A stretch of DNA of 64,000 bases from assembly GCA_965219695.1 (NCBI GenBank), contig CBDCOJ010000016.1, forward strand, positions 32,360 through 96,359, read 5' to 3'. Positions 3,905 through 62,114 of this stretch are shown here, piece after piece. This DNA is from Candidatus Poribacteria bacterium (GTDB taxonomy: Bacteria; Poribacteria; WGA-4E; WGA-3G). How positions within the stretch are numbered: position 1 is the stretch's first letter; every line of letters starts with the position of its first letter. The position numbers and the translations under genes were made by a program. The notes under the pieces are model-generated. The model had not been told where the DNA came from, made no database searches, and saw only the letters and a list, made by a program, of their open reading frames with translations.

Positions 3905-4134
3905 AGATAGTTTATAGAAATGTGAAAAAATATTGGAGAAAAACCGAAAACTGAATAACCCTATATTCAATTTGGAATTAAGCGAATAATATGATAAATT
4001 TTGATAGATTCAAATAAAATAACACATTTTTTTCACTTTATGCAACCTGTAGACCAAAAACTGTGTCTTTAATATCATAACATACGAAATGTATCTATTT
4101 TACCGAACCAAATATCAATATAAGGAGCAAAACA

Positions 4135-4920
4135 ATGAAAAGATTTGTCCTCTTACTACTTATAATCGTAGCACCAGCACTTGCAATAAGCGAACCACCA
4201 GAAGAGATGGTGCTGATATCCGCAGGTGAGTTTACGATGGGCACAGACGATCCAAAGGCAACTGATGACCAACGACCCGCACGCAAAGTAAATGTAGAGA
4301 CTTTTTACATTGACAAACACGAAGTTACAAACGCCGAATTTCAAGCGTTTATCTTAGCAGATGGATACAATAAACAGGAATACTGGACAAAAGAAGGGTG
4401 GGATTTCATTCAGAAGGAACGATTTGTTTATAGTTATCCAGCAAAGAGAAAGTATCGGATTGACAAACCGCTTGGTTTTGAGGGCAATTCTGTATCACGA
4501 GAACCTGACCATCCTGTTATTGGGGTAAGTTGGTATGAGGCATCTGCTTATGCTGTATGGGCAGGCAAACGTCTACCGACCGAGGCAGAATGGGAGAAGG
4601 CCGCCAGAGGCACTGATGCGCGGCTCTATCCGTGGGGTAACGACTTTGATTTTGCCAAACTTAACTATTTTCCCCATCACGAAAAGTTGTCTCCTGTTGG
4701 GAGTTATCCGGATGGCGCGAGTCCTTATGGTGTGCTGGATATGGCGGGGAATGTTGCTGAATGGTGCGCGGATAATACACATGATAAGGATAAAAAAGTG
4801 GTTCGAGGCGGCGGATGGAATTCTATACGATTGCATCTGCGTTCAACCCATCGCGTCGCACACCCACCTTCATATAGATATTACAACATCGGTTTCAGAT
4901 GTGCAAAGGATATTGAGTAG
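4135..4920 (+). CDS. Formylglycine-generating-enzyme (FGE/SUMF1) family protein, secreted
   Basis: Signal peptide followed by FGE-sulfatase domain motifs: MVLISAGEFTMGTDD, RPARKVNVETFYIDKHEVTNAEF, PVIGVSWYEASAYAVWAGKRLPTEAEWEKAARG, LYPWGN, LDMAGNVAEWCAD, VVRGGGW, IGFRCAKD. Confidence 0.9.
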   Translation: MKRFVLLLLIIVAPALAISEPPEEMVLISAGEFTMGTDDPKATDDQRPARKVNVETFYIDKHEVTNAEFQAFILADGYNKQEYWTKEGWDFIQKERFVYSYPAKRKYRIDKPLGFEGNSVSREPDHPVIGVSWYEASAYAVWAGKRLPTEAEWEKAARGTDARLYPWGNDFDFAKLNYFPHHEKLSPVGSYPDGASPYGVLDMAGNVAEWCADNTHDKDKKVVRGGGWNSIRLHLRSTHRVAHPPSYRYYNIGFRCAKDIE

Positions 4921-5026
4921 GAGCGATCTCCGAATCGCGATGGTAGGAGCGATCTCCGAATCGCGATGGTAGGAGCGATTTCCGAATCGCGATGGTAGGT
5001 AATCGGGAATCGGAGTTCCCTCCTAC
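4917..5026. repeat. Tandem REP-A x3 (26-bp unit) capped by an inverted REP-B
   Basis: gtaggagcgatctccgaatcgcgatg occurs at 4917-4942, 4943-4968 and 4969-4994 (one substitution in the third copy). It is followed by gtaggtaatcgggaatcggagttccctcctac. The first unit contains the TAG stop of the FGE gene. Confidence 0.95.
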
Positions 5027-5106
5027 AAAGAGCAACATTACGTGGGAGATCTCCGCATCAAGAACTACATACATAGATTACAAAATCACATATTAGGGTG
5101 ATTAAC

Positions 5107-6117
5107 ATGCATAGAAAGATTATTACGACTCTTCTGATTTTATTCTGCTGCTACAACTTTAACTATGCAGAAGACATCTCAATAGAAGAGCTCATACGCG
5201 GCATTAATAAGAATCGGATAAAGATTCTGAGCGGTGAAGTCTATTCCAAAACGACAAAATTCTATCCCGCTCGAAAAACTGAAGAGGAGATCACTGAATG
5301 GATGAAGACAGAAAAGAAAAAGAGAATAAGTGAATACACACCTCTTCCCCCTGATCTGGATGTTGATGTGAAACAGTATGAAACAGAACACCTCATACCT
5401 TATTTGAACTCCAGGGCAAATGATTATCGTGAACACACAAAGACCGAACTTACGACAACAATCTTCCGCGTATTAAATCCAGATGATGAGAAACTTCCAA
5501 AACAAGATCAATATAAGGTAACGGTGGTAAATAATCCAGGGCATCCGATAGATAGGATGTCGGAATTGTATATACCATCAGATAGTATCTATCTACTTGC
5601 CTTTGATACGCACACACAGGTGAAACAACGTATAGGTAACATTCTCTTTTCAAGCAGTTCTTTATCTGCTGTAAGTTTTTATGATTCCAATTATCACTAC
5701 GGTTATCGGCAGTTTGCTATGTTTGGCAGGTCACCTTATCTTGTGCCATCAAACGCAAAAAAAATGGGTAAAGAAAAGATAGACGGTGTGGATTGTCGTA
5801 TCATTACCTATATCTCCCCTAAAGGTCTGAAAGTTCGGATGTGGGTTGATCCTAAAAAGGATTTTGCTGTTCATCAATATGAACTTCTACATTCTACAAG
5901 AGGGTATATTAGGAATGTTTATAAAGCGTTCAAGAAATATGGAAATTTATGGTTTCCCGAAATCTATATAGGGACTACCTATTCTCAAGATGGATCGTTG
6001 CGGAATCAATATAAAGTTGAAGTGATTGATGCGGAATTCAATGTTAGTTTTCCCGAAGACTTTTTTGAAATAGATAAGGATTTCTATAAATCTCCACATT
6101 CTATGTTCAATCAATAA
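5107..6117 (+). CDS. Secreted LolA/RseB-like (lipoprotein-sorting fold) protein, paralog 1
   Basis: ATG 5107 was chosen by analogy with paralog 2 (MHRK/MHRN). It has a signal peptide and shares motifs with 6215 and 8354: ELI.GIN..R..I.SGEVYSKT, ARKTEEEI, QYKVT..SPGHP, LLAYD..TQV..IGN, FGRS.Y.VP, GKEKIDGV.C, R.WVDP.KDFAVH, LWFP, VIDAEFNV.FP.DFFE. The fold assignment is from memory of LolA-like/DUF4367-type proteins. Confidence 0.6.
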   Translation: MHRKIITTLLILFCCYNFNYAEDISIEELIRGINKNRIKILSGEVYSKTTKFYPARKTEEEITEWMKTEKKKRISEYTPLPPDLDVDVKQYETEHLIPYLNSRANDYREHTKTELTTTIFRVLNPDDEKLPKQDQYKVTVVNNPGHPIDRMSELYIPSDSIYLLAFDTHTQVKQRIGNILFSSSSLSAVSFYDSNYHYGYRQFAMFGRSPYLVPSNAKKMGKEKIDGVDCRIITYISPKGLKVRMWVDPKKDFAVHQYELLHSTRGYIRNVYKAFKKYGNLWFPEIYIGTTYSQDGSLRNQYKVEVIDAEFNVSFPEDFFEIDKDFYKSPHSMFNQ

Positions 6118-6149
6118 ACCCGTATGTGTGCTTTCGAATCGATCAGATA

Positions 6150-6174
6150 GTCGGGAATCGAAGTTCCCTCCTAC
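6150..6174. repeat. Solo REP-B copy
   Basis: gtcgggaatcgaagttccctcctac, between paralogs 1 and 2. Confidence 0.85.
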
Positions 6175-6214
6175 AGAACGTACACAACAAAATCAATACT
6201 AAGGAGAATTCAAA

Positions 6215-8251
6215 ATGCATAGAAATGTTTTTGCAAGTGTCATCATTATTATACTCTTATCTATTAACATATTGTGCTACGCAGTAGACATGCCCACACA
6301 CGAACTCATCCAGTATGTAAATTTGGCACGCTGGGACATTAGAAGTGGCGAAGTACAAGCAGAAATATCGACTGAAAACGCTGCTCGGAAAACGGAAGAA
6401 GAAATTGCCGCGTCTGTTAAAAAAAGTATAGAAGATGAACTAAAAAGCTATATACCTCATGAAGGCGTTGACAAGGAGACGTTTGAGAAAGAGTATCTCA
6501 TACCGAATCTAAATTACAATGCAAATCGGGATCGTAAGCATACAGAAGTTGAACACAATACAACAGCATTTCAGATTATTGAACCAGATACCGCTGGCTT
6601 CCCAAAACTTTTTCAATATAAACTAACATTTGAGAAGTCACCAGGACATTCTCTAGATAGTGAAGTCGCACAGAATCACCATGCAAGTGATACGTTCCTC
6701 CTTGCTTATGACCGTCAAACTCAAGTAAGACAAGTTATTGGCAACCTGATATCTACAGCCGGGGAAGTTGACATAGAAGATTCTACTGTATGGTATGGAT
6801 ATATGCAATATTCAGTATTTGGAAGATCGTTTTACAAAGTGCCAAGAGATGCACAACTCGTTGGGAAAGAAAACATTGATGGCGCGGAATGTTATGTCTT
6901 GGAATTTACGAACGTTTACGAGCAGAAAATCAGAATTTGGGTGGATGAATCCCTGCGCTATTGTATACGCAAGTTTGAATCTTTAAGTGCCACTGAAACA
7001 GACTCTATATCTTATCGTGTAGAAAATAAAGATTTTCAGAAATTCGATCAGATGTGGTTTCCTATGCGCATAGAAGAAACTTATTATGAAAAAGACGGAT
7101 CAGTCCGTGAACGTGTTACCAACAAGATCACTTCTGCAGAATTTAATGTCGATTTTCCAAAGGATTTCTTTAAGATAGATAGAAATCAATATAGACCCCG
7201 AAGAACCGGACAGCCATCACCCTACTCTGAAAGACTTCTGCTAAGCGGGTTAAATAGTCTGTCGCACTATTGTAAATTGCTAAAGGTTGAAACGGATATT
7301 CAAGAACTTATGCGGCTGTCAGATTTCGATCCGGCACAAGGCACTACGATGAAAGGATTGAGAAAGGCTGCAACTGCCAAAGGTATACCGCTAACAAGTG
7401 TAGAGACATCACTGGATTCGCTGGAATGGAATTTGGTGTCGTTGCCCGCTATCACTTATGTGGATACTAACCATTTTCTTATCTTTGAATCTGCGGATAG
7501 GGACGGTGTGAAAGTCGTTGATCCTTTTTACAAATATCATCCGTATCTTACTTGGGCGGAAGTCTCAAAGATATGGGGCGGTGAACAACTGCTCGTGTTT
7601 GATAAAATGGGCGGTCAGCAAGCGATACCGATGCAGGTGCCGCTCATCTACGCTGACGAACCAGTTTTCAACTTCGGAAGAGCGTTCGGGGGCAGTGAAG
7701 TTCAACACACTTTTGCTGTCAAGAACATCGGTCAAAAACCGTTGAATATTCTTGACATTACCGAAACGTGTGCATGCACCGCAACTGTCCTTTCACAACA
7801 TGAAATTCCACCCGGGGAGGTAGGTACAGTTTTAGCGACCATGAAGATTTATCCTGGAAATGGCATGATGCAAGAATACATATACATACATACTGATGAC
7901 CCCACACAGAACACATTGGCATTCACACTTACAGGACAAGCATTTACACCGCTCAAAACGTTACCCGATATGGTAGCATTCGGACAAAGAAAATTGCTTC
8001 TCAATCAACCCATTACGAAGCGGATTTCTATTCACTTACAAAAGAATACGAAACTCCTGGCAGTGAGAACCGACTCAGAACATATTAAAGCAACATTGGA
8101 AACAAAGAGTGGTATTCCCCATGCGAATCTACAATTTATGCCGACCTTTCCTATTGGGAAACTTAGTCAATATCTTATGATAGATTATGAACATAAAGGC
8201 CAGAAAGCAACCCACTTCGTCTACATTCATGGAGAGATATTAGAGAACTAA
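6215..8251 (+). CDS. Secreted LolA/RseB-like paralog 2, fused to a C39-peptidase-like domain and a DUF1573-like domain
   Basis: Residues 1-330 are paralogous to 5107 and 8354. Residues about 335-470 look like a C39 fold (GTTMKGLRKAATAKGIPL..., LPAITYVDTNHFLIFES...VKVVDPF), but Ser replaces the catalytic Cys (LLLSGLNSL). Residues about 480-560 match the DUF1573 pattern (PVFNFGRAFGGSEVQHTFAVKNIGQKPLNILDITETCACT...IPPGEVG). Confidence 0.6.
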   Translation: MHRNVFASVIIIILLSINILCYAVDMPTHELIQYVNLARWDIRSGEVQAEISTENAARKTEEEIAASVKKSIEDELKSYIPHEGVDKETFEKEYLIPNLNYNANRDRKHTEVEHNTTAFQIIEPDTAGFPKLFQYKLTFEKSPGHSLDSEVAQNHHASDTFLLAYDRQTQVRQVIGNLISTAGEVDIEDSTVWYGYMQYSVFGRSFYKVPRDAQLVGKENIDGAECYVLEFTNVYEQKIRIWVDESLRYCIRKFESLSATETDSISYRVENKDFQKFDQMWFPMRIEETYYEKDGSVRERVTNKITSAEFNVDFPKDFFKIDRNQYRPRRTGQPSPYSERLLLSGLNSLSHYCKLLKVETDIQELMRLSDFDPAQGTTMKGLRKAATAKGIPLTSVETSLDSLEWNLVSLPAITYVDTNHFLIFESADRDGVKVVDPFYKYHPYLTWAEVSKIWGGEQLLVFDKMGGQQAIPMQVPLIYADEPVFNFGRAFGGSEVQHTFAVKNIGQKPLNILDITETCACTATVLSQHEIPPGEVGTVLATMKIYPGNGMMQEYIYIHTDDPTQNTLAFTLTGQAFTPLKTLPDMVAFGQRKLLLNQPITKRISIHLQKNTKLLAVRTDSEHIKATLETKSGIPHANLQFMPTFPIGKLSQYLMIDYEHKGQKATHFVYIHGEILEN

Positions 8252-8290
8252 TACCAAATTAAAAGGATTTATCTTGTTTTACTGGAGTCA

Positions 8291-8319
8291 GGTGCGGTTA
8301 GGAAACCGCACCTACCGAG
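8291..8319. repeat. Hairpin repeat HP-2 (gtgcggtt-aggaa-accgcac + ctaccgag)
   Basis: ggtgcggttaggaaaccgcacctaccgag. Related copies lie at 18708, 19340-19400, 47585-47635 and 54206. Confidence 0.8.
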
Positions 8320-8353
8320 ACGAATCGCGTTAATTTGGAATAGGAGATAAACC

Positions 8354-9367
8354 TTGTATAAAAACGCAATCACGATTATTATAACATTATTGTTTTTTGT
8401 TTCTATATGCCCAGCAGCGGATATATCCGTAGAAGAATTGATCAACGGTGTAAACAAGGCACGGCTTACAATCAAAAGCGGTGAAGTTTATTCCAAAACG
8501 ATAGAAGAAAGTGAAGCGCGAAAAACTGAGGAAGAGATCGCTGAATTGATAAAAACGGAAAAAGAGGAGGAATTAAAGCGTTTCATCCCCTTCCAATCAT
8601 CTCCTGATGTTGATAAGGAAAAGTATGAAGCAGAAGAATACCTCAAAGCGAAACTTGAAGATAGTGCTCGATGGTATCGTCAACACAAGGATAATAGCCG
8701 GACGACAACACTCTTCAAAGTTCTGAATGCAGGTGACATATCACAAAAGCCTCAATACCAGTATAAGTTAACGCGAGTTGACTCACCAGGAGTTCCTCTT
8801 GATGAGATGTCAAGCCGATTCAGACCGTCAGATGATATTTTTCTTCTCGTTTATGATAAGCAAACCCAAGTCCGAGAATCTATAGGAGATATTATCTTTT
8901 CCTTAGATGATGATCCATCTGCTATTAGTTTTTATGATAAGAGTCAACATGTAGGGTATCAATATTTTCAGTTTTGGGGTAGATCATCTTACTATGTGCC
9001 ACCCAAGGCAAAACACATCGGAACAGAGAAGATTGACGGTGTAGAATGCCATATCCTTGTATTTACAACAACAGACAGGCGGAGAATAAGAATATGGATT
9101 GATCCTGAAAAAGATTACGCTGTACATAGGATTGACCACCTACCTCTGACAATAGAATTGGTGGTTTGGCGGAGTGTTTATAAACAGTTCGTTAAGTATG
9201 GAGATTTCTGGTTTCCGCAGGTTCATGTTGGTAATAGTTTCTTCCGGGACGGTAGGATAGAGAGAACGATAACAGATGAAGTGATTGATGCGGAATTTAA
9301 TGTTGATTTTCCCGACGGTTTTTTTGAGTTTGAGCGAGAATACTATAAGCCGCAGGATATGAGGTAG
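8354..9367 (+). CDS. Secreted LolA/RseB-like protein, paralog 3
   Basis: TTG start 7 nt after aggag, a signal peptide and the same motif set as paralogs 1 and 2. The TAG stop lies inside the following REP-A copy. Confidence 0.6.
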   Translation: MYKNAITIIITLLFFVSICPAADISVEELINGVNKARLTIKSGEVYSKTIEESEARKTEEEIAELIKTEKEEELKRFIPFQSSPDVDKEKYEAEEYLKAKLEDSARWYRQHKDNSRTTTLFKVLNAGDISQKPQYQYKLTRVDSPGVPLDEMSSRFRPSDDIFLLVYDKQTQVRESIGDIIFSLDDDPSAISFYDKSQHVGYQYFQFWGRSSYYVPPKAKHIGTEKIDGVECHILVFTTTDRRRIRIWIDPEKDYAVHRIDHLPLTIELVVWRSVYKQFVKYGDFWFPQVHVGNSFFRDGRIERTITDEVIDAEFNVDFPDGFFEFEREYYKPQDMR

Positions 9368-9425
9368 GAGCGATCTCCGAATCGCGATGGTAGGAGCGAT
9401 CTCCGAATCGCGAGTGCATTCCTAC
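9364..9425. repeat. Tandem REP-A x2 plus short CCTAC cap
   Basis: gtaggagcgatctccgaatcgcgatg, then gtaggagcgatctccgaatcgcga, then gtgcattcctac. Confidence 0.9.
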
Positions 9426-9453
9426 AATACATAACAAATCATGAGGTCGCAAT

Positions 9454-12351
9454 ATGGAAGATAACATTGTCCAATTGATACACAGGATTTTGACTGGTGA
9501 AGAGGAAGCATTTAGCATATTAGTCCAGAAGTATCAGAAGAGAATTCACGCCCTCGCTTGGCGGAAGATTGGTGACTACCATATCGCCCAAGAGATAACA
9601 CAAGATACCTTCATCCAAGTATATAATAACCTGTCCAAACTAAAGAATCCAAAACTGTTTGATGGATGGGTTTATGTGATTGTAAATCGGCTATGCTCCA
9701 ATTGGCTACAAAGGAATAAAGACACGATGCCGTTCTTGGAAGATATCCCGATTGAAGAAAGAAATAGAACTTATCATACACAATACCAATCAGAGCAACG
9801 TATGACAGAAATCAGAGAACATTACCGAGAAGTCGTCAAGAAACTATTAGAAAAATTGCCAGAGAGTGAACGCACTGTCATTACCCTCTATTATCTCAGT
9901 GAAATGTCCGTAAAGGATATAGGTAATTTCTTAGGTGTATCCGCCAATACCATCAAAAGTAGGCTGCATCGGGCAAGAAACCGATTAGAAGCGGAAGAAC
10001 ATCTCTTGATTTCTGAAGCATTTGGCGGTTTACAACTATCCACAGACCTAACCGAGAGCATCATGAAGCAGATTGCAGACATAAAACCGACACCACAGGC
10101 AACAAAACCATTACTACCGTGGATGGCTTTTGGCACTGCTGCGGTCTTGGTTATATTATTGCTGGGTGCGATGAGTCAACGGATGGGTCTTATTCAAAAA
10201 CCGTATGACTTTAATGCCCAATTAGAACCAACGATTGAAATTGTTGAATCTCCTATACACCTCGATACTGTTTCTAAACCTGCTTTGCGCAATCAAATGG
10301 GAAAGAGTGTTATTGATGGTAATGTTGATAGTGATGAATTGCCGGTATCTGAGGCGGTCTTAGTAAATAATGCACGCGAGAATGCTACGCATTTATCATC
10401 GTTATGGAAACAGACATACGTACCGCAAGGTGATCCTGTCTATAATCTCTTTGCTACCTCAAATGGTAATCTCTACGCATTTTCATGGACTGGTGTTTAC
10501 AAATTAAACAAAGGCATGACATCATGGAGAAATATTAGCAAAAACACACCTACAAGTATCATCGGCGCACCAATCGCTGAATACAAGGATACGCTATATG
10601 TTGCCGGTAGCGATAAAATATACACTTCATCTGATGATGGAATCTCATGGCAGGTATTTGCTTCCCGTCCAATTGGAAAACCTATTGGATTGGTCATAAT
10701 GAATAAAACATTCGAACGAAAATCACGCACAAGTTTTGTCATGTATATTGCCACGCAGGATAAAGGCGTATTTCGGTCTACCGATGCTGGTAGAAAGTGG
10801 ACTCCACTTAATGATAGGTTGACAAATAAAAAGATAACAGCAATCGCCGCGATGGATAATGCAGTGTTTATTGGCACAAACCGAGGGCTTTATCGCTTAA
10901 TTTCAGATGATTTGGAACGACTATCTGTGGTGGATAATACGGACAACGCTGTCCATGCATTGGCAGTTGATGAGAATAACCTTTATGTAGCAACGGGACA
11001 AGATTTTCTTATCAATGACTTTTCTGATACAAAGAATAGAGATGCTCGTAAGATATTCCACTCAACGAACCTCGGCATGACATGGACTGATATAACGCCT
11101 AAAGATAAATATTTCATGATAGGCACTTCACCTGCAAGCCCAACTCGTATTATAGCAAAAGGTCCGACGTTGTTCGTTTTAGGTGTCCCAACTTTCCAGT
11201 CAACAGATGCAGGGCAAACGTGGGTAAATCTTGGATTTGACACAACATCAACACCGTCAGCCCATGCTACAGTTATAGCGGTAGATGAGAAAACTTTTTA
11301 CAAATTAGATAAGTTCAGCATTCATCGTACAATTGATAGTGGCACAACGTGGCACTCTTTCATGAATGGAATTGTAGGGACAGATGTTCAGGAGTTGATT
11401 GTATTCAACAATCGACTCTATGTATATACAGGCAGCGACATTTATGAAACGATGGACAACGGAAAAATATGGGTGCCAGTGCGTTTTGATTACGGACAGT
11501 TCATATCCGAACACCTTGGACAGTCAGGATCTTATGTCCATCATCTTACTGATTCCAAGTTTGTGATTGTTGGCAAATCTCTTTACCTAATTTCACCGCA
11601 AGGTGAGGGTTTAGACATTTTCCGTTTACGCACAGGTGAAGCTGCGTTTTCAATGATTCAAAAGATCTCTTCTCGGAAACTGTGGAAAAACGCCAAATCA
11701 TCGTCTACTACACAGTTCTCTGGAGGCAAACAGAATATCGAATTGACTGAAAATAATACACTTTTCATAACATACAATAAACGGCTTTTAAAATGGAATA
11801 CGGACAATTCAATATTTACGGACACCGGCTTGATAGATACAAACAACCATCCTGATAATGGGTTCAAGATAGCAGCTGCATCACAAACCGTCTATGTGGG
11901 TAAACGAGATGGGAAACTATTCCAATCCATCAATGGTGGAGAAAGTTGGAGGGATATAACGTTGAGTCTACCCTCAACCTTTACCCACATTAAGGATATC
12001 GTATTTGCGAATATGAAGGTATATGTGGCAACGGATAAAGGTGTCTTATGTTCGCAAACTGGCGAATATTGGCGTCCGCTTACCGATAATGTTGGAAGAC
12101 ATATTGTCATAGATAAATTCGCTGTGGACGGGTTAAGTTTATATGGTGTTGGGGATATGGGTATCTATCGCTTAGATTCTGATAGTAAATGGGATCAGAT
12201 TTCTTCAAGTATCCCTGATAAAGTGCTATCTGTAGCGGTGAGTAGTGATAAACTTTATATCGCTACAAAACAGCGCGGGATTTTCCATATTTTGCTTGAG
12301 GAAAAACCTTTAAAAGTTAGTGATGTGATTAGCTCCCGTTCTACAAATTAA
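9454..12351 (+). CDS. ECF sigma-70 factor fused to a TM helix and a large BNR/Asp-box beta-propeller ectodomain
   Basis: One uninterrupted 965-aa ORF. Sigma region 2 reads ITQDTFIQVYNNL...DGWVYVIVNRLCSNW. The region 4 HTH reads LPESERTVITLYYLSEMSVKDIGNFLGVSANTIKSRLHRARNRL. A TM helix (LLPWMAFGTAAVLVILLLGAM) follows, then about 720 aa with seven S-x-D-x-G-x-(T/S/K)-W motifs. Confidence 0.8.
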   Translation: MEDNIVQLIHRILTGEEEAFSILVQKYQKRIHALAWRKIGDYHIAQEITQDTFIQVYNNLSKLKNPKLFDGWVYVIVNRLCSNWLQRNKDTMPFLEDIPIEERNRTYHTQYQSEQRMTEIREHYREVVKKLLEKLPESERTVITLYYLSEMSVKDIGNFLGVSANTIKSRLHRARNRLEAEEHLLISEAFGGLQLSTDLTESIMKQIADIKPTPQATKPLLPWMAFGTAAVLVILLLGAMSQRMGLIQKPYDFNAQLEPTIEIVESPIHLDTVSKPALRNQMGKSVIDGNVDSDELPVSEAVLVNNARENATHLSSLWKQTYVPQGDPVYNLFATSNGNLYAFSWTGVYKLNKGMTSWRNISKNTPTSIIGAPIAEYKDTLYVAGSDKIYTSSDDGISWQVFASRPIGKPIGLVIMNKTFERKSRTSFVMYIATQDKGVFRSTDAGRKWTPLNDRLTNKKITAIAAMDNAVFIGTNRGLYRLISDDLERLSVVDNTDNAVHALAVDENNLYVATGQDFLINDFSDTKNRDARKIFHSTNLGMTWTDITPKDKYFMIGTSPASPTRIIAKGPTLFVLGVPTFQSTDAGQTWVNLGFDTTSTPSAHATVIAVDEKTFYKLDKFSIHRTIDSGTTWHSFMNGIVGTDVQELIVFNNRLYVYTGSDIYETMDNGKIWVPVRFDYGQFISEHLGQSGSYVHHLTDSKFVIVGKSLYLISPQGEGLDIFRLRTGEAAFSMIQKISSRKLWKNAKSSSTTQFSGGKQNIELTENNTLFITYNKRLLKWNTDNSIFTDTGLIDTNNHPDNGFKIAAASQTVYVGKRDGKLFQSINGGESWRDITLSLPSTFTHIKDIVFANMKVYVATDKGVLCSQTGEYWRPLTDNVGRHIVIDKFAVDGLSLYGVGDMGIYRLDSDSKWDQISSSIPDKVLSVAVSSDKLYIATKQRGIFHILLEEKPLKVSDVISSRSTN

Positions 12352-13052
12352 GAACACATTTCTATTCTTTCACGCGCGATTTCTACATAGTTTGTGTCTA
12401 AGTCACAACCTGCGAATCTTCGGGAATTCCTAATAGCAGCAACACCTGTTGTGCCTGAACCGAGAAACGGGTCCACGATCATATCTCCTACGTTACTATG
12501 TTTTAACACCAAATCTTCGAAAAGTGATAAAGGTTTTTGCGTTGGGTGCACCCTGTTTCCATTATGCCGCGGGATTGGATATTCATAGACGCCAGAATCA
12601 TATTCGCTGTTAAAAGTCGGTTTGCCGACTTTCACCCCCGTAACTGCTACTTCTCGACTATTGGACAGATAGGTTGCCCGCATATTCAGTGGGACTGGGT
12701 TGGTTTTCTGCCAGATAATCAACCGAATCATCTTAAAACCCGCAGATTCCATCGCTTCTTTTAGCCTATCTATTTTCCAAATATCATACCATATAATAGC
12801 AGTTCCTCCGCGTCGCAAAGCATCGTAAAACGATATTGCCATATCCTCAAGATTAACTTCAGTCTGATCCCACTGCCCAAAGTCCATACTCACAGCGAAC
12901 CTTTTTTCTCCTTTTACCACCGACTTAAACCCCGTCTTTTTGCTTATGCAATATGGGGGATCGGTTAAGATAAGGTCAACCGATTTTGCTGGCAAAGCGG
13001 TCATAAAATCTTGGTAATCAGCAGTTTCAACCCGATAATCACGAGGTGTCAT
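12348..13052 (-). CDS. Beta-class DNA methyltransferase (N6-adenine / N4-cytosine type, DPPY)
   Basis: Motif IV (LILTDPPY) lies N-terminal to motif I (VDPFLGSGTTGVAA), the beta permutation (N6_N4_Mtase type). No endonuclease gene is adjacent. Confidence 0.85.
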   Translation of the reverse strand: MTPRDYRVETADYQDFMTALPAKSVDLILTDPPYCISKKTGFKSVVKGEKRFAVSMDFGQWDQTEVNLEDMAISFYDALRRGGTAIIWYDIWKIDRLKEAMESAGFKMIRLIIWQKTNPVPLNMRATYLSNSREVAVTGVKVGKPTFNSEYDSGVYEYPIPRHNGNRVHPTQKPLSLFEDLVLKHSNVGDMIVDPFLGSGTTGVAAIRNSRRFAGCDLDTNYVEIARERIEMCS

Positions 13053-19548: not shown

Positions 19549-21459
19549 TTACCAACTCAGATAGACAACGCGATAATCAAAAAACAATCCCAAAATGCTA
19601 ATAATGGATGCAACGATAACATCCCCGATAACCAATCCGATGAAAAACGGGATAGCACGTCGATATAACCGAACACCACCCGTTGAAAGCAGAATCCGTT
19701 TAATCGTCCAACTGATTAAAAGTGGAAACCAAAGACCGGTAAACGTCCACCAACTTGAAACGACATATCCAACAGGATGGAGTGGCCACTGAATAAATCG
19801 CCATCGCAATAGTAGTAGACCAATCGCGAAAGTGAACCCGCCTGCTGTATACAACAATCCACTGAAATTTGTTTCACCCGGGTTGTAGAGCCATCCAGCG
19901 AGTCGATTGAAAGCCGCGCGTGCATACCACGAACGCGCATTCTCTAAACCGACCTGATAAGAAAGGTGTAGATGTCCCCACGCAGCCGAAAGTGCCCCGA
20001 CAAAAATCGCAATTGCTAACACCCATAGCAGTTGTGTTGAATTAAAACGAGTTTGATGCGCGAGTTTTAGAGCCTCCAATTGATGCGGCATTGGATGCGC
20101 GCGATAAGAGAGATGATTTAGCCAGAAGAATAACGACATCACTGATAAATTGCGATTGCCAATACGTCTTGTTCCGAATGCATCTGTTAAGAGTAAATCC
20201 GGACCGGCATTGTATAGATCGTGGGCAGGTGGTCCCAATTCAGCACGGATGCGAGTGATAGTAATTGACATCGCAAAATAAAGAACAAAAAACAGTGCAG
20301 CAAACCATAGAGACATTCCTGCTTTCAAACAAAATCCTATAATCAATATCAATCCAATCAACGCGCCGATTATTGCTGCTTTGTAGCGTAACGCCTCACC
20401 TTCATCACTATCCGTCATGGCACGACTGCTGAACAAGGTCTTCAACACAATCTTAACATGTGAACGTCCCATCCACAATGTCCATAGAAATAGAGCTATC
20501 CATACACCACGAATCTGCGCCATTTCTCTCGGAAACCCGATAGAACCACGCCATCCAAAGCTCTCCCCGACAATTCGTTGAAAGTGCCAGAATAGGTGAA
20601 AAAACCAGCAGGAAAATCCTAAATCAAGTGGAATCAAAAAGCCAACGCCGATCGCAAACGGAAAGAAACTGATACGGAAACCGGGATTATTCATTGCACT
20701 CCACGGCTTTTCTGTGAGACGAAAACTATGATAGAGCGGAATTGTCGGGAAAACTGGATTGATTTGGTGTAAACTATAAAGAAGGTTCAGCAAGGCAGCG
20801 ATGCACAATCCGACAGTCATCATCCGCCGATTGAAAAAGCGGTTCTTTCCTTGCGTGATTTCAAAAGGGAGTTGGGCAATTGGATAGGTAAGGCGTTCAT
20901 GTTCTTGCCACTGTTTGCGCAAAAGCACATTAAGACAAAGCATTGTTACACCGATAACGAGGCAGAAACCTACCCATATCAGTGTTGGCGCTAACCACGC
21001 TTGTATATGTGTTTGAAGATAGAACGTTGATTCGCCTTTATAGAAACCGCTTAATATATCTTGTTCACCAACAACAAGCCATTCAGGGAGATGCTGATGA
21101 AAGAGTTGTGCCCACTCGTTTTCAGGTGTTGCGTACCAGAAACCGTTACCCATTAACGGCACGAGCACTTGCAGCATGTCCCGTCCAGCGAAAACAGATG
21201 CTTGACACAGCATCGCGTAGATAGTTAACAGTTCGCTTTGTGTAAACGCAAGTGTTGGACGTAACCGACGTAGTAACGTATTTAGCGCAATGAGAACAAG
21301 CAGCGTAAACAGTACATTGAACAGTAACGCCAAACTTGTGGGACGGTTGGAATCCCAAATGTAACTGAGATGAAGAATCCAATAACTGTTAAGGGGGATG
21401 AGGGCAATGCCAATCAGCGTTGCACGTAACGTAATAGGGCTTTTTGTTGGAGACTTCAT
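19549..21459 (-). CDS. Large polytopic integral membrane protein, unknown function
   Basis: 636-aa ORF with more than 12 hydrophobic segments and a W/F/L-rich composition. No recognisable catalytic motif. Confidence 0.7.
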   Translation of the reverse strand: MKSPTKSPITLRATLIGIALIPLNSYWILHLSYIWDSNRPTSLALLFNVLFTLLVLIALNTLLRRLRPTLAFTQSELLTIYAMLCQASVFAGRDMLQVLVPLMGNGFWYATPENEWAQLFHQHLPEWLVVGEQDILSGFYKGESTFYLQTHIQAWLAPTLIWVGFCLVIGVTMLCLNVLLRKQWQEHERLTYPIAQLPFEITQGKNRFFNRRMMTVGLCIAALLNLLYSLHQINPVFPTIPLYHSFRLTEKPWSAMNNPGFRISFFPFAIGVGFLIPLDLGFSCWFFHLFWHFQRIVGESFGWRGSIGFPREMAQIRGVWIALFLWTLWMGRSHVKIVLKTLFSSRAMTDSDEGEALRYKAAIIGALIGLILIIGFCLKAGMSLWFAALFFVLYFAMSITITRIRAELGPPAHDLYNAGPDLLLTDAFGTRRIGNRNLSVMSLFFWLNHLSYRAHPMPHQLEALKLAHQTRFNSTQLLWVLAIAIFVGALSAAWGHLHLSYQVGLENARSWYARAAFNRLAGWLYNPGETNFSGLLYTAGGFTFAIGLLLLRWRFIQWPLHPVGYVVSSWWTFTGLWFPLLISWTIKRILLSTGGVRLYRRAIPFFIGLVIGDVIVASIISILGLFFDYRVVYLSW

Positions 21460-27977: not shown

Positions 27978-28120
27978 GTAGGTCGAGATTCGGAGATCGC
28001 TCCTACCGATGGACTGCTTATGGTAGGAGGGAACTCCAATTCCCGACTATTAGGGGTTGCGTCGCGATTCGGAGATCGCTCCCGCTGAATGCCAAAAGCG
28101 CATTCAGCGTTGATTCACAG
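27978..28120. repeat. Composite REP block (REP-A rev, REP-B fwd, REP-A rev, HP-1)
   Basis: The last roughly 100 bp are near-identical to 42661-42757. Confidence 0.9.
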
Positions 28121-28180: not shown

Positions 28181-30505
28181 TTATTGATTGGTATCTGGTA
28201 AATCTATTGGCTGGATGTTGTCATCTTTGTCAAAAGTGAAATCTGCGAATCCAACACCTATGATACTAATCCGAATGTTCCCCAACCCATCGGTCATGAG
28301 ACTAACATCTCCCCTACTCATATATCCTAATACTTCTATCTGTAGGGATCCATCACTTTGATACCTATCCTTATTGTTTATCTCTCTCAGAATGACATTA
28401 CCTTTCTCTTTTTTTATTTGATAGTTATTTTGTTTCAGCCAGTTTTGCACGACTTCCGAGTCTTTTTTCCAAGGCTTTTTTACGACTTTATCCGGCACTT
28501 TTCTAACACCGATTTTTTCCCAATCCCAAAGGAGTACAGTACCATCCTGGCTGCCGCTGGCAAGCGTTTTACCGTCGGGAGAAAAATCCAATGTTTCAAT
28601 CGGTTTTGTATGTCCAGTCACAGTCCCTAAACCGTTCCCTGTCTCTACATCCCATATCTGGACATCATACTCTTTACCGTGCGATCCTGCAGCCAGAAGA
28701 GATTTGCTATCTGGTGCGAACAAAATCACATTTGTAACCCCTCTAAAATTATTTAGAATCATGGTGGATTCTCCAATTCCTGTTGATGTCACTTTTGACA
28801 AAATGACCCCGTACCGATCTTTTACTGCAAGGGTGGTACCGTCAGGTGAGAATGCCAATACTTCAGATCTATCAAATGCTGTAGTAAAAGGAGTTAGATA
28901 TCGCTCTGAATTGATATTCCATACCTGTGTTGGTACCCAACGTCCATAAGTGGCAAGTAAGGTTCCGTCGGCTGAAAACATTAACTTTCTGTCTCTAAAC
29001 GGTTCTTTCGTTTTTAGGTGAAACAGTTTCAGACGAGTGTTAGTGTCCCACAATTCAATTACCTGCGAATTGCTGTAAGCAATAGTATTTTTATCAGGTG
29101 AGAATGCGACTGCTGTAGCCTTTCCACCTACTTCTAACTCGGGAACGGGAATCTCATCTCCAGTAGCTATCTCCCAAAGTTTCATGTGTTTATCAATTTT
29201 GAATTCTGATCGTCCAACCCCAATCATAGCAGTACCACCCCAACTCATAAAGCGTATCGCATCAGGTGACAATACAAGTTGACGTACTATATCACGTTTG
29301 CCAGCAGAAAAGGTAATCAGTTCTTGCTTCGTTTTCAGGCTCCAAATCTCTATAGTTCCGTTATATGATCCGCATGCCAGTGCAGTACCATCTTTAGAAA
29401 ACTTAACAGCCTTTACAAATTCTGTATGACCTGATGTAAATGTAGTGATTTCTTCTCCTGTGTCTTGATTCCAAAACCGTATTGTGCCATCGTAACTACC
29501 ACTCGCCAATGTTCTACCATCAGGGGAAAATGCTAATGCGTTGATTGCGCTTGCATGTCCTAATAGCGTTGCACGTTCAGCATGTGTCTCTATATCCCAG
29601 AGTTTGATAACCTTATTCGCATCCCCACTTGCTAAGATTCTTCCATCTTTAGAGACGGCTAATGCATTAATCCAGCCTTTATGTCGTTCAAGTATCGCAA
29701 GCCTTTTCCGTTTATCAGCATCCCACAATCGTACAGTTTTATCTTCACCTCCGCTTGCAAGTATTCTTCCATCGGGTGAAAACGCTAAAGCAGTAATTTT
29801 TCGATCTCTTGGGGAATTAACCATACCTTCAACCAATTTCAGAGAACCCAACAAAGTGATATGTCCTCTGAGAGTTGCTCGCTTTTTACCAGAATTCGAA
29901 TCCCACAAATATATTTTTCCATCATTATGTCCAGTGGCAAAGATATTTTGATCATCAGCAAAAGATATTGCATTATATGCGTCTAACTTCCACAATTCTG
30001 TTCCTAAGTTCAATAGCTTTTTGCCGGTACTTGCATTCCAATACTCAATTTGACCAGTTCTATCCAGACTAATGAGCGTTGTTCCACTGAATGCCAACGC
30101 CTTAATAAACATAACTCTTTCAGTCAATGTGGGTGTAGAAAGTAGGTTACCTGTATCTAAATCCCAAACTTGAATAAAAGGGATTTCCACTCCAGCGCTT
30201 GCAAGCATTTTGCTATCTGATGAAAATGCAAGTGCGTTCACATGCCCAGTATGTCCCGTGAACAAAGCGGTTTCTTTTCCATCTGGCACATCATATAACC
30301 ACACGCCAACATCTGTTCCTACAGCAAGTTCTGTGCCATCCGGTGAAAACCGCATGATATTTATACCGCCCTTTCCAAGCCGTGCGATTGCGCCTTCGGG
30401 TAAACCGGCTTGTGTATTGTCCTGTGCAAAACTGGTTGAGAGTATTGCTACAATCAATAGAAAAATCAGGCAAGATAGGTTTTTGATTTTCATGGCTAAA
30501 TTCAT
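28181..30505 (-). CDS. Secreted WD40 repeat protein (double propeller) with a novel ~100-aa C-terminal domain; array member 1
   Basis: 774 aa with a signal peptide, the conserved head FAQDNTQAGLPEGAIARLGKGGINIMRFSPDGT and about 14 WD repeats (GH...FSPDG..LASGS.D.T..LWD). An alternative start is ATG 30493. Confidence 0.9.
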   Translation of the reverse strand: MNLAMKIKNLSCLIFLLIVAILSTSFAQDNTQAGLPEGAIARLGKGGINIMRFSPDGTELAVGTDVGVWLYDVPDGKETALFTGHTGHVNALAFSSDSKMLASAGVEIPFIQVWDLDTGNLLSTPTLTERVMFIKALAFSGTTLISLDRTGQIEYWNASTGKKLLNLGTELWKLDAYNAISFADDQNIFATGHNDGKIYLWDSNSGKKRATLRGHITLLGSLKLVEGMVNSPRDRKITALAFSPDGRILASGGEDKTVRLWDADKRKRLAILERHKGWINALAVSKDGRILASGDANKVIKLWDIETHAERATLLGHASAINALAFSPDGRTLASGSYDGTIRFWNQDTGEEITTFTSGHTEFVKAVKFSKDGTALACGSYNGTIEIWSLKTKQELITFSAGKRDIVRQLVLSPDAIRFMSWGGTAMIGVGRSEFKIDKHMKLWEIATGDEIPVPELEVGGKATAVAFSPDKNTIAYSNSQVIELWDTNTRLKLFHLKTKEPFRDRKLMFSADGTLLATYGRWVPTQVWNINSERYLTPFTTAFDRSEVLAFSPDGTTLAVKDRYGVILSKVTSTGIGESTMILNNFRGVTNVILFAPDSKSLLAAGSHGKEYDVQIWDVETGNGLGTVTGHTKPIETLDFSPDGKTLASGSQDGTVLLWDWEKIGVRKVPDKVVKKPWKKDSEVVQNWLKQNNYQIKKEKGNVILREINNKDRYQSDGSLQIEVLGYMSRGDVSLMTDGLGNIRISIIGVGFADFTFDKDDNIQPIDLPDTNQ

Positions 30506-32826
30506 TTATTTGTGTTCTTTCCTTCGTCAAGAGGTTTGTGTTTCAGTTTTCTTTCTTCATCAAACATGAACTTGCCTACTCCTACACCAACCACACGAAT
30601 TTCAAGAACACCGTTTCCATCAATCTTAACATTTACCTTACCACTACTTATTCGTCCTCCGCCCCCACCTGAAACCGTGGTACTACCAGTACCACGTGTA
30701 AGCGTATATCCTTTTAAGGTTTTCTTAACTTTATATCCGTTTTTCTGCATCCAGTTTAAAATCGCTTCAGCTTCTTCCACCTTGCTGGCGTATTCCACGG
30801 GTTTATCAGGAGGCGCCAAATTGCTGCTCAAGTTTTTTTCTATTGCATCATTCATTGCCTTGGTAACGATCTTTTTCCAATCCCAGAGAAGGACTGTTCC
30901 ATCTTTACTTCCACTTGCAAACGTTTTGCCGTCTGTTGAAAATTCTAAGACTGTAATTTCCTCAGTATGTCCTGATAATGTACCAAGATTCCAGCCGTTT
31001 TTCACACCCCATAGCTGAATTAGATTTTTCCAACCATTCGTTTTCGGTGTAACAAGAAAGTTGCCATCAGGTGAGAATTTCAGTTCCTTATTACGTCCAG
31101 TATCAAGTATTTTACCGCGTTGTTTCATGCCGGTTGGTTTAATATCCCATAAAACAATATGATCATGATGACCAGAAGCAAGAAGTGTACTGTCAGGTGA
31201 AAATGCTACTGTTTCTGCAAGATCCATGTTGGAAGGTGTAATTCGCTGTTGCGTCCCAACATCCCATATTTGTGTTTGGTTATGCGCACCACCCGATGCA
31301 AACAGTTTGCCGTTGGGAGAAAACTCCAACCTTCTTGAAAATGGAGAATGTAAGTGCACGTGAAACATTTCCTCACCTGTGTTTATATCCCACGCAAGAA
31401 TGCTATCTCTATGACGAATTCCTGCGACAAGTATTTTGTTGTCCGGAGAGATTGCAAGTGCGTTCACAGGTCTATCCAAATCCTGCCAAGGACCAGGGAT
31501 ATGTTCATCCGTGGTAATGTTCCATAACTGGATAGGTTTCCGTTTACCTACGCCTGAACCGCGATATCCAAAACCTATTGGTCTAAATGCCAGTTTACCA
31601 CCATTGGCGCCTTGACTAACAAGAAGTGTTGCATCCGGTGAAAATGCTATTCCATTTGTATTCTCGTTTTGTGCTGCAGTAAAGGTGGTTAGTTCACGTT
31701 TCGTTTTTACACTCCATACATCAACAGATCCATCAAAGGAGGCACTTGTGAGTATTGTGCCGTTTTCTGAGAATGCGACTGTTTTAACCCACTCTGTGTG
31801 TCCAGCGGTGAAAGTAGAAATTACTTCGCCTGTATCTTGATTCCAGAACCTGATTGTGCCATCGTAACTACCACTCGCCAATGTTTTTTCATCAGGGGAA
31901 AACGCTAATGCACTAATCGCATTTGTATGTCCAATGAGCGTAGCCCGTTCCTGTTTTGTGTTTACATCCCAAAGTTTGATGACCTTATTCGTATCACCAC
32001 TTGCTAAGATACTTCCATCAGTAGAGAAAGCAACAGCAATAACCCACCCATTATGACCATTGAAGGTGGCAAGGCTTTTGCGATTTTCTGTATTCCACAA
32101 CTTGACAGTTTTATCTAAACTTCCACTGACGAGCATTTTTCCATCAGGTGAAAATGCCAATGCCCAAACATCTTTGTCATCGATTTTGAATAAACGCGCA
32201 TGCCCCATTAGGTTTGCTTGTCGTTTGCCCGTTGTTGCATCCCATAAACGGATTTTGCCGTCGCCATGACCAGTGGCAAGCATGTTGTTTGCTGGAGAAA
32301 ATACAACCGCTTCGTGAGATTGCATCCTACTTGAACTAGACGTCTTACTGCCAGTTTCAATATCCCAATGTGTGAATCTCCCAACCATATCCAAGCTAAT
32401 AAGTGTTTTAGCGTCTTCAGAGAATGCTAATGCCTCAATTGAATCTGTCGGTCTTGATAATGTGAAATTTGATAGTTTTGTCCCAGTTTCTATATCCCAT
32501 AGTTGAATAATAGGGTTTGAAAATCCACCGCTTGCGAGGATTTTTCCATCAGGTGAAAATGCAAGTGCGTTCACATGCCCAGTATGTCCCGTGAACAAAG
32601 CGGTCTCTTTTCCATCTGGCACATCGTATAACCAAACGCCAACATCTGTCCCTACCGCGAGATGTGTGCCATCCGGTGAAAACCGCATGATATTTATCCC
32701 ACCTTTGCCAAGCCGTGCAATTGCACCTTCAGGTAGACCGGCTTGTGTGTTATCTTGTGCGAAACTACTTGAGAGCAGTGTGACTGTGAGTAGCATAATT
32801 GTGAAGAATATGATTTTGGTTTTCAT
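30502..32826 (-). CDS. Secreted WD40 repeat protein, array member 2
   Basis: 774 aa. Its first roughly 95 residues are almost identical to member 1, also at DNA level. Its stop overlaps the start of member 1 (ATGA). Confidence 0.9.
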   Translation of the reverse strand: MKTKIIFFTIMLLTVTLLSSSFAQDNTQAGLPEGAIARLGKGGINIMRFSPDGTHLAVGTDVGVWLYDVPDGKETALFTGHTGHVNALAFSPDGKILASGGFSNPIIQLWDIETGTKLSNFTLSRPTDSIEALAFSEDAKTLISLDMVGRFTHWDIETGSKTSSSSRMQSHEAVVFSPANNMLATGHGDGKIRLWDATTGKRQANLMGHARLFKIDDKDVWALAFSPDGKMLVSGSLDKTVKLWNTENRKSLATFNGHNGWVIAVAFSTDGSILASGDTNKVIKLWDVNTKQERATLIGHTNAISALAFSPDEKTLASGSYDGTIRFWNQDTGEVISTFTAGHTEWVKTVAFSENGTILTSASFDGSVDVWSVKTKRELTTFTAAQNENTNGIAFSPDATLLVSQGANGGKLAFRPIGFGYRGSGVGKRKPIQLWNITTDEHIPGPWQDLDRPVNALAISPDNKILVAGIRHRDSILAWDINTGEEMFHVHLHSPFSRRLEFSPNGKLFASGGAHNQTQIWDVGTQQRITPSNMDLAETVAFSPDSTLLASGHHDHIVLWDIKPTGMKQRGKILDTGRNKELKFSPDGNFLVTPKTNGWKNLIQLWGVKNGWNLGTLSGHTEEITVLEFSTDGKTFASGSKDGTVLLWDWKKIVTKAMNDAIEKNLSSNLAPPDKPVEYASKVEEAEAILNWMQKNGYKVKKTLKGYTLTRGTGSTTVSGGGGGRISSGKVNVKIDGNGVLEIRVVGVGVGKFMFDEERKLKHKPLDEGKNTNK

Positions 32827-32844
32827 ATATTAATTTCCTCTATT

Positions 32845-36977: not shown

Positions 36978-37113
36978 GTAGGAGGGAACTCCGGGGAATG
37001 CCATACGCGCATTCATACCCGGTAAATGACTAAACGTCATTCATACCGTTGATTTCTTGATTTGGATTCCCAACTATCATTGTGTTTTGTCGCGATTCGG
37101 AGATCGCTCCTAC
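36978..37113. mobile_element. Modular REP-bounded MITE-like element (short form)
   Basis: REP-B and REP-A act as terminal inverted repeats around two internal hairpins. It is an inverted copy of 61958-62114 and lacks a roughly 35-bp module present there. Confidence 0.8.
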
Positions 37114-41046: not shown

Positions 41047-41116
41047 ATGCTGGTTTTCTCTGTGTGCCCTTATTCATTGACATCAGAAATTAGTGAACTC
41101 AAAGGAGGAATTCAAC

Positions 41117-42600: not shown

Positions 42601-42757
42601 GTGAATCAACGCCAAATGCGCTTGGCAGAATACGCGTTTGGTATTCTGCATGATTTGGCGGGAGGGAACTCCGATTCCCGACTATCAGTGCGGTTCGTCG
42701 CGATTCGGAGATCGCTCCCGCTGAATGCCAAACGCGCATTCAGCGTTGATTCACAGA
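42601..42757. repeat. Composite REP block (HP-1 variant, REP-B, REP-A rev, HP-1)
   Basis: Near-identical to 28020-28120 over the REP-B/REP-A/HP-1 part. Confidence 0.9.
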
Positions 42758-54132: not shown

Positions 54133-54205
54133 CGGTGCATGCTCCTTTTGTAACAATATTCTGTCGGGTTTCGCAAACTCTACCCGACCTACAGGAATAG
54201 ATACC

Positions 54206-61957: not shown

Positions 61958-62114
61958 GTAGGAGCGATCTCCGAATCGCGAACTGTCGGGAATCCAAATC
62001 AAGAAATCAACGGTATGAATGACGTTTAGTCATTCACCCAAATCAACGCCACATGCCTGTTGGCATCTGTCGGGTATGAATGCGCGTATGGCATTCCCCG
62101 GAGTTCCCTCCTAC
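61958..62114. mobile_element. Modular REP-bounded MITE-like element (long form)
   Basis: Inverted copy of 36978-37113 with one additional hairpin module (about 62037-62075). Confidence 0.8.

Follow-up and report, generated by a model that had tools for sequence, protein, structure and literature searches.

A single gene on the forward strand of the DNA analysed here (64,000 nucleotides of a Candidatus Poribacteria genome, contig CBDCOJ010000016.1, positions 32,360 to 96,359, referred to in its entirety as 'the window') encodes an extracytoplasmic function (ECF) sigma factor, a transmembrane (TM) helix and a periplasmic tandem beta-propeller region as one polypeptide of 965 amino acids. The open reading frame (ORF) occupies positions 9454–12351 and runs from an ATG start through 965 codons with no internal stop; a likely ribosome-binding site (GAGG, 9443–9446, same strand) can be read directly from the sequence 7 nucleotides 5' of the ATG, and similar GGAG or GAGG elements also precede its homologues. 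The gene is the BNR double-propeller representative of a Poribacteria-specific, modular family of membrane-tethered ECF sigma factors that have no recognisable anti-sigma domain.

Architecture and integrity of the fused chain

The N-terminal part of the protein carries sigma region 2 (residues 23–89; 9520–9720; Pfam Sigma70_r2, 1.9e-10), modelled as helices with a predicted local distance difference test (pLDDT) score of ~80, followed by the helix-turn-helix of sigma region 4 (residues 127–178; 9832–9987; Sigma70_r4_2, 6.6e-15, and Sigma70_r4, 1.4e-12). The Sigma70_r2 and Sigma70_r4_2 matches lie ~37 residues apart, in the layout of ECF (group 4) factors, and no Pfam match to sigma regions 1 or 3 was found in the chain. 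Pfam Sigma70_ECF also matches, and the NCBIfam sigma70-ECF model TIGR02937 does so at 90.3 bits (cutoff 42.9); since every named equivalog or subfamily model in the NCBIfam listing (SigW, RpoE, SigM and others) scores under its own cutoff, no named ECF subfamily applies. The closest solved relatives in profile searches are Bacillus subtilis SigW (5wuq, 2.7e-29), factors of the AlgU/RpoE type and SigH. Across the family the motifs of both sigma regions, the DNA-binding helix included, are near-invariant (L160, G161, S163, T166, S169 and R173 of region 4 are fully so), and C81 of region 2 is the sole invariant cysteine across 61 BNR-type sequences.

The sigma domain is followed by a cytoplasmic linker (residues 181–218; 9994–10107), which is recognised by conservation of the motif QLSTDLTESIM..IKP and for which an AlphaFold2 model predicts two short helices (residues 180–192 and 199–208). 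The linker contains no zinc motif and no cysteine at all, and a Pfam search at E-values up to 1 revealed no anti-sigma domain in the chain, FecR and zf-HC2 included. The single TM helix that comes next (residues ~219–241; 10108–10176), LLPWMAFGTAAVLVILLLGAM, is the sole hydrophobic peak of the chain (Kyte-Doolittle 2.2) and coincides with a group of invariant columns: in the helix and its surroundings P219, P222, W223 and A229 are invariant, and G227 and G238 nearly so. On the periplasmic side lies a juxtamembrane motif, Q..(F)QKPY.F.A..EPTIEIVESPI....SKP..RNQ.G (residues 242–285; 10177–10308), which is predicted to be disordered (pLDDT <30) and which, from its conservation in BNR and non-BNR paralogues alike, is a candidate release or cleavage module. 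A variable spacer of low conservation and low pLDDT (residues 286–316; 10309–10401) separates this motif from the tandem propeller region (residues 317–950; 10402–12303), to which the Pfam families Sortilin-Vps10, PSII_BNR and DUF6242 match. In all, ~720 residues lie C-terminal to the TM helix, of which the ectodomain itself accounts for ~630. In this layout the linker and the TM helix keep the cytoplasmic sigma domain at the inner membrane.

Seven Asp boxes are present in the ectodomain (at residues 392, 442, 537, 583, 626, 666 and 825), six in the first half of the propeller region and one in the second; when the protein was shuffled 5000 times, such motifs numbered 0.11 on average and at most 3. 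The full-length AlphaFold2 model (pLDDT 71) is confident for the sigma domain and the propellers and not for residues 213–316, while a model of residues 312–965 alone reaches a pLDDT of 81 and a predicted template modelling score of 0.73, with ~55 strands (~55–60 overall). When compared with the PDB using Foldseek, both models retrieved GH74 xyloglucanases first (E ~1e-20 to 1e-21), followed by the periplasmic double-propeller sensors of Bacteroides, BT4663 (heparin/heparan sulphate) and BT4673. The ectodomain is accordingly modelled as a tandem BNR-type double propeller that resembles GH74 enzymes and the Bacteroides sensors without being a GH74 member. The xyloglucanases are built of two tandem seven-bladed BNR-type propellers that form a cleft; the window ectodomain, modelled with a tandem arrangement of its own, is only 13–16% identical to them (TM-score 0.36–0.45), and the resemblance is not taken to mean enzymatic activity. 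In profile comparisons, too, GH74 chains align with parts of the ectodomain only (for example, residues 386–594 with residues 101–343 of 2cn2).

Two other descriptions of the ectodomain were rejected. A single seven-bladed propeller does not accommodate ~55–60 strands, and the best structural matches are two-propeller proteins. A ten-bladed propeller of the Sortilin type was set aside in favour of the tandem arrangement: the Pfam Sortilin-Vps10 match (48.8 bits, in four partial stretches) reflects Asp-box blades only, the Cys-rich 10CC-type module of Sortilin is absent from the sequence, and Sortilin is not among the top structural matches from Foldseek. Sortilin-Vps10 and PSII_BNR both score above their cutoffs, and WD40_like (25.6 bits) falls below its cutoff of 40.

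Most of this architecture had been anticipated by an original prediction made from the letters of the window. Its N-terminal sigma-70 regions 2 and 4 are borne out by Pfam and NCBIfam matches within residues 1–180, its single TM helix by the one hydropathy peak, and its placing of sensor, tether and sigma factor in one polypeptide, with no separate anti-sigma factor, by a layout that is kept across homologues. Its 'seven-Asp-box propeller' holds as to the seven boxes and fails as to the single propeller, given the strand count and the two-propeller structural matches.

The fusion is a constant property of the protein family. A homologue search of 5.8 billion proteins was carried out and its best 120 matches inspected; these are 43–97% identical to the window protein over 98–100% of its length, contain sigma and BNR/Sortilin-type domains and, in 117 cases, are at least 940 residues long (nearly all 950–1040) with the same layout. 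The few that bear a name are called 'sigma-70 family RNA polymerase sigma factor [Candidatus Poribacteria bacterium]'. When the 117 full-length members are aligned, the linker, TM helix and first ~45 periplasmic residues are among the best-conserved parts, and this segment is conserved at least as strongly as the propeller.

Two further searches were directed at split forms. Residues 181–965 were used as a query against 1.84 billion cluster representatives; every full-length match aligns from its own residue ~181 and therefore has a sigma-sized N-terminal part, and the shorter matches are N-terminally truncated gene calls or stand-alone propellers with signal peptides. A hidden Markov model of the juxtamembrane region, run over all fetched loci, identified 103 ORFs with the linker-TM-juxtamembrane module, 97 of which have sigma in the same ORF; the other six are truncations at locus edges or frameshift breaks at arbitrary points (for example, in locus L049). 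Neither the 103 module ORFs nor the linker-to-propeller matches include an evolved two-gene version in which sigma and anti-sigma are separate.

An assembly or sequencing artefact could make two genes, one for a sigma factor and one for an anti-sigma factor, look fused by hiding the stop or frameshift that parts them. The original prediction had singled out positions 10000–10120 for a check on a hidden stop or frameshift and had asked whether homologues are fused or split. A few family copies elsewhere are indeed broken by frameshifts. Against an artefact stand the identical fused layout of more than 100 homologues from independent assemblies, long-read chromosome-scale ones among them, and the high conservation of the junction at the protein level: no stop or frameshift was found near those positions, the full-length homologues continue through the conserved junction, and 97 of the 103 module copies are fused, with no evolved split form among the 103. 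Since so many independent homologues share the fusion and its junction, a hidden stop or frameshift is excluded in practice, and the artefact reading is so improbable as to be effectively refuted.

The modular family and its upstream motif

A family scan, conducted with one genome per species, gave 491 confirmed relatives. Among the best 80 of these 491 records, 72 are named Poribacteria and 4 are 'uncultured bacterium' metagenome-assembled genomes; the last 4 are sigma-only matches from other bacteria, at 29–31% identity. Several assemblies hold two to four family loci. At many loci the similarity extends only from residue 1 to ~285–315 of the window protein, and the ORF then continues into a different ectodomain. 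What is held in common, hereafter the 'chassis', comprises sigma domain, linker, TM helix and juxtamembrane segment; its conservation ends at about residue 285, and BNR and non-BNR members alike carry the motif (Q)YL.RFQ.PYSF.A.SE.T.EI.D.PIV....SKP.VR.Q.G.

The ectodomains that replace the BNR propellers are of several kinds: WD40 double propellers (loci L040, L041, L044, L046, L049, L052 and L063), a Reg_prop propeller (L034), LRR plus GHL15 (L037), TPR plus AhpC/Redoxin (L047) and CarboxypepD_reg/Big_1 (L053), as well as further examples without any Pfam match. The 83 fetched loci contain 129 chassis copies, with two to four copies in 31 of the loci, and family copies frequently stand in tandem. 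Chassis identity between ectodomain classes (0.52–0.58) is much the same as that within the BNR class (0.55), which fits either an outer domain that has been exchanged repeatedly or a radiation of long standing. The proteins constitute a Poribacteria-wide modular family, in which the sigma-linker-TM-juxtamembrane part is constant and the ectodomain exchangeable.

Several individual loci add detail to this description. Four tandem chassis-type sigma fusions lie within positions 951–16042 of L049, on one Poribacteria chromosome, the first of them split by a frameshift inside the linker; this array shows local duplication and decay in the family. In L082, the locus of the orthologue with 73% identity, a 117-residue ORF with a Sigma70_r2 fragment (7687–8040) abuts the start of the sigma-BNR gene and is preceded by an unannotated gene for 628 residues (5748–7634); the fragment probably survives from a second chassis gene that once stood in tandem. 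The WD40-type paralogues of L040, L041, L044 and L052 often have a cysteine in sigma region 4 (GEMTCEEIS, at about residue 153 of the window protein) that is absent from BNR-type members. The 64-kb window itself holds no second family copy. It does contain, on the reverse strand, three tandem genes for WD40 propellers of 774, 774 and 601 residues (28181–34650) and a fourth large WD40 propeller gene (840 residues; 51634–54156), all without the sigma chassis.

The upstream regions of family genes share a sequence motif. In an assumption-free count of dyads over 91 non-redundant upstream regions, ATGCA/GCGT-type pairs were found in up to 18, where shuffles gave at most 9, and the 7-mer TTATGCA occurs in 29 of the same 91. 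The exact dyad ATGCA[AC]C-N14-18-CGTC (with spacers of 16–18 seen) lies upstream of 39 of 127 copies, mostly 54–84 nucleotides 5' of the ATG and with a variable spacer sequence. A position weight matrix (PWM) built from these regions scores above 15 upstream of 69 of the 127 copies; at a score of at least 20 it detects 82 sites in 1.04 Mb of loci, 61 of which are directly 5' of a family gene. An AAC-type -35 element combined with a CGT-type -10 element is the hallmark of ECF promoters, and the presence of such a dyad before family genes fits a functional sigma factor that regulates itself positively. The sequence ATGCA(A/C)C-N16-18-CGTCA may be described as a promoter-like element of ECF type that is found family-wide.

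Some of the remaining strong sites lie 5' of genes for ABC-2 permeases, for a trypsin-like protease with TPR repeats and for unknown secreted proteins. Sites before the ABC-2 permease and protease-TPR genes are located at ~2970 in L011, ~10375 (reverse strand) in L047 and ~10803 in L008. These genes are candidate members of the regulon, and it is conceivable that the protease acts as a site-1 protease.

The window locus and its neighbours

The sigma fusion gene is the last of a run of five genes on the forward strand that ends at 12351. The run is headed by an FGE-sulfatase-like gene (4135–4920, assigned by Pfam) and continues with a gene for an unknown protein of 339 residues (5098–6117), a gene with LolA-like, Peptidase_C39 and DUF1573 matches in Pfam (6215–8251) and a gene for a 337-residue protein with a weak DUF2092/LolA-like match (8354–9367). 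The order of the five genes is kept in the loci of orthologues that are 89% and 73% identical, and on this arrangement the sigma fusion may be co-transcribed with the genes at 4135–9367. A candidate cognate ECF-type promoter, TTATGCAACC-N17-TGTGTCTTTAATA, lies on the forward strand at 4039–4074 (PWM window 4035–4074), 61–96 nucleotides before the ATG of the first gene. No site in the window has a higher PWM score (13.0, against maxima of 4.7–11.0 in five shuffles), and when this diverged intergenic region is aligned three ways with its counterparts in the orthologous loci L081 and L082, the motif block forms the longest run of conserved sequence. An autoregulated cluster is plausible because both the gene order and the motif block are conserved in the orthologous loci.

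The 86-nucleotide spacer immediately upstream of the sigma gene consists largely of two copies of a repeat, and the pair folds only modestly better than shuffled sequences (z = -1.9). This 21-nucleotide element, GGAGCGATCTCCGAATCGCGA, has 12 copies in the window (0 expected), mostly just 3' of genes and in the orientation of the gene: at 2812–2832, 4920–4992 (three copies), 9367–9413 (two) and 61961–61981 and, on the reverse strand, at 27983–28082 (two), 37090–37110, 42698–42718 and 51527–51547. It is sometimes arranged in tandem 26-nucleotide units and looks like an intergenic repeat of the repetitive extragenic palindromic (REP) type. The copies before the sigma gene are missing at the same spot in L081.

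Beyond close orthologues, no shared synteny was detected when the window's neighbouring genes were compared with 80 loci by tblastn. More distant family members most often adjoin genes for ABC-2 permeases (22 of 76 loci), ABC ATPases and MacB/FtsX proteins, and clustering of flanking ORFs revealed no conserved anti-sigma or protease partner gene.

Other genes of the window deserve brief mention. A DNA methyltransferase gene (N6_N4_Mtase, 1.9e-32; 12348–13052, reverse strand) is convergent with the sigma gene and overlaps its stop by 4 nucleotides; in L081 the methyltransferase gene has an ICEA-like gene beside it. None was seen in the window, and the window enzyme may be an orphan methylase. 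A sulfatase gene followed by two genes with CarboxypepD_reg and C-type lectin domains is found on the forward strand (37660–39048, 39829–41046 and 41093–42526); together with the FGE-sulfatase-like gene at 4135, these fit a glycan- and sulfate-ester-oriented lifestyle. A 636-residue protein encoded at 19549–21459 on the reverse strand carries DUF6785 (9.3e-157) and DUF6784 and matches, over its full length, a family whose function is unknown.

Known systems, proposed mechanism and significance

The window protein belongs to an established general class, in which an ECF sigma factor is extended at its C-terminus by a membrane-anchored sensory part. The original prediction had described such tethered factors as noted computationally; the class is indeed known, but not only computationally, because IutY of Pseudomonas putida (ECF243) and SCO4117 of Streptomyces coelicolor are fused, membrane-anchored ECFs that have been studied experimentally (PMC8999054). 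The prediction's further statement, that a version with a BNR propeller is uncharacterised, agrees with the literature searched, which yielded no description of one for Poribacteria. Indeed, no report of ECF or fused sigma factors in Poribacteria was found there, and Poribacteria proteins with WD40, LRR and TPR domains are treated in it only as eukaryote-like repeat proteins.

The window protein resembles IutY in being one chain that begins with an ECF sigma domain, crosses the membrane once and ends in a periplasmic domain (PMC8999054). In IutY a FecR-type anti-sigma region is retained and a TonB-dependent receptor of the outer membrane takes part, whereas the window protein has neither a FecR match nor any other anti-sigma match in Pfam, its ectodomain is a double propeller, and no gene for a TonB-dependent receptor is present among the annotated neighbours in the window. 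The actinobacterial groups ECF52, ECF53 and ECF48 (SCO4117 being an example) likewise combine an ECF domain with a C-terminal extension, one or more TM helices and an extracytoplasmic domain, which in ECF52 binds carbohydrate, and they carry a ZAS-like zinc finger (HxxxCxxC) before the membrane (PMC8999054). The linker of the window protein, in contrast, has no cysteine and no zf-HC2 domain, and its phylum, ectodomain and juxtamembrane motif also differ.

A third comparison concerns ECF57 (formerly ECF01-Gob) of Planctomycetes, which has a long WD40-like C-terminal extension, several copies per genome, no partner anti-sigma factor and two conserved cysteines, one in sigma region 2 and one in region 4 (PMC8999054). 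The two groups have in common an ECF domain extended by a beta-propeller, and paralogues in Poribacteria carry WD40 domains on the same chassis; the window protein differs in having BNR/Asp-box propellers and a single invariant cysteine (C81) instead of two. Members of ECF57 are also said to possess a TM helix, in work by Jogler et al. in 2012. Because paralogues of the window protein carry WD40 domains, and some have the second, region 4 cysteine, the family may be distantly related to ECF57, the comparison being one of described features only.

Two further systems are similar in logic, in that multiple paralogous membrane sensors with carbohydrate-binding or propeller outer domains control genes for glycan use. 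In the SigI/RsgI system of Clostridium thermocellum, the RsgI anti-sigma factors are polypeptides separate from SigI, and the Bacteroides sensors BT4663 and BT4673 signal through histidine-kinase, receiver and AraC modules and not through sigma; in these respects the window protein differs from both. Across the comparisons with named ECF subtypes, the defining features considered (the FecR domain of the IutY type, the ZAS motif of ECF52/53/48, and the WD40 repeats and cysteine pair of ECF57) are absent from the window protein.

The interpretation that we favour, and regard as moderately probable, is that the window protein is a single-chain ECF sigma factor freed by ligand-dependent proteolysis, in the manner of IutY and ECF52. 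While tethered, the sigma domain would be unproductive. A periplasmic ligand, for which the best guess is a glycan or oligosaccharide, would bind the propellers and permit cleavage in the conserved juxtamembrane segment; a site-2 protease would then cut inside the TM helix, with its proline and glycine residues, and the freed sigma domain would bind core RNA polymerase and transcribe from ATGCA(A/C)C-N16-18-CGTCA promoters, that of its own cluster included, with positive autoregulation as the result. The fact that paralogues with unrelated ectodomains have the linker, TM helix and juxtamembrane segment in common points to a common mechanism operating on that segment. Helix-breaking TM residues are expected in substrates of site-2 proteases, and such residues are invariant or nearly so in this family; like the conserved juxtamembrane motif, they are an indirect hint of proteolytic release. 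In IutY the release is carried out by Prc and RseP, and activation by proteolysis has been proposed for ECF48, ECF52 and ECF53 (PMC8999054).

Several observations weigh against this interpretation. No cleavage site is predictable, and the locus has no linked protease gene. The candidate promoter at 4039–4074 stands near the noise ceiling (the runner-up in the window scores 11.9, and shuffles reach 11), its CGTC core reads TGTC, and the 86-nucleotide spacer directly upstream of the sigma gene contains no promoter motif. Co-transcription with the preceding genes is uncertain because REP-like hairpins occupy two gaps of the proposed operon. The PWM statistics are partly circular, since the matrix was trained on upstream regions that were then scored; the initial dyad enrichment is not. 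Finally, the superposition on GH74 structures is poor (root-mean-square deviation ~12 A at the low identity and global TM-score given above), so that the idea of a glycan ligand rests on a loose structural resemblance.

One alternative, which overlaps with ligand-dependent release in adopting the same release model and departs from it in the class of signal, holds that the propellers sense the state of the envelope, or a protein cue from the host or a cell surface, instead of a nutrient glycan. Sister paralogues carry the protein-interaction domains WD40, LRR and TPR on the same chassis; among the products of the preceding genes in the window are envelope proteins that are LolA-like and C39-peptidase-like; ABC-2 and MacB-type exporters often adjoin family members, some of them preceded by the motif; and SigW, the closest relative of the sigma domain, serves in the response to envelope stress. 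We nevertheless consider such a cue rather unlikely for the window protein, whose best structural matches are carbohydrate-active enzymes and glycan sensors and whose cluster is headed by an FGE-sulfatase-like gene. It is also distinctly unlikely that the sigma domain works while still tethered, in the manner of ToxR or CadC, with a ligand altering its oligomeric state or conformation and RNA polymerase being recruited without cleavage. The lack of a recognisable anti-sigma domain between sigma region 4 and the membrane, and of a linked protease gene, would suit such a scheme, and the juxtamembrane motif might serve for dimerisation or for binding a partner instead of being a cleavage site. 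We know of no sigma factor that functions while anchored in a membrane, however; a linker of ~35 residues would press RNA polymerase hard against the membrane, the experimentally studied fusion IutY is released by proteolysis, and the invariant proline and glycine residues of the TM helix are typical of substrates of intramembrane proteases.

A further possibility is that the sigma-like N-terminus serves as a decoy or anchor, as in PhyR, and that the chain acts chiefly as an enzyme or binding protein of GH74-like kind anchored in the membrane. The protein does show weak, below-cutoff similarity to a BNR 'glycosylhydrolase' family of NCBIfam, and propellers of this type also occur on their own, with signal peptides. 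The near-invariance of the sigma motifs down to the DNA-binding helix, the matching ECF-type motif before most family genes, and the use of one chassis with many unrelated ectodomains, which fits signalling and not a single enzyme, make a decoy highly improbable.

To a specialist, a fused ECF sigma factor is not in itself astonishing; it is the scale and modularity of the family, the candidate switch, the motif and the connection with 'eukaryote-like' repeat domains that are worth following up. Few of the known ECFs with fused sensors have been studied, and in the known ones an anti-sigma element can still be recognised. The present family is distinct in having none, in the strong conservation of its TM/juxtamembrane module and in the free swapping of its outer domain, and it thereby provides a natural test set for how a tethered sigma factor stays silent and how it is released. 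The candidate promoter motif could allow regulons to be predicted from genomes alone. If the protein works as proposed, it would amount to a one-protein transmembrane device leading from sensor to sigma factor, with exchangeable inputs, that would be attractive for synthetic biology.

For the biology of sponge symbionts, the family ties the repeat-domain proteins that abound in Poribacteria to gene regulation. As a more tentative proposal, possible though on balance doubtful, the members may form a 'plug-and-play' signalling system, in which one chassis is combined with many periplasmic domains, among them the 'eukaryote-like' WD40, LRR, TPR and BNR repeats that are a known trait of these symbionts, and with a shared juxtamembrane release switch and one promoter grammar. 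If that is true, some of the repeat proteins usually interpreted as effectors of host manipulation would instead be sensory parts of sigma factors, and the family would represent a major, undescribed mode of signalling in Poribacteria.

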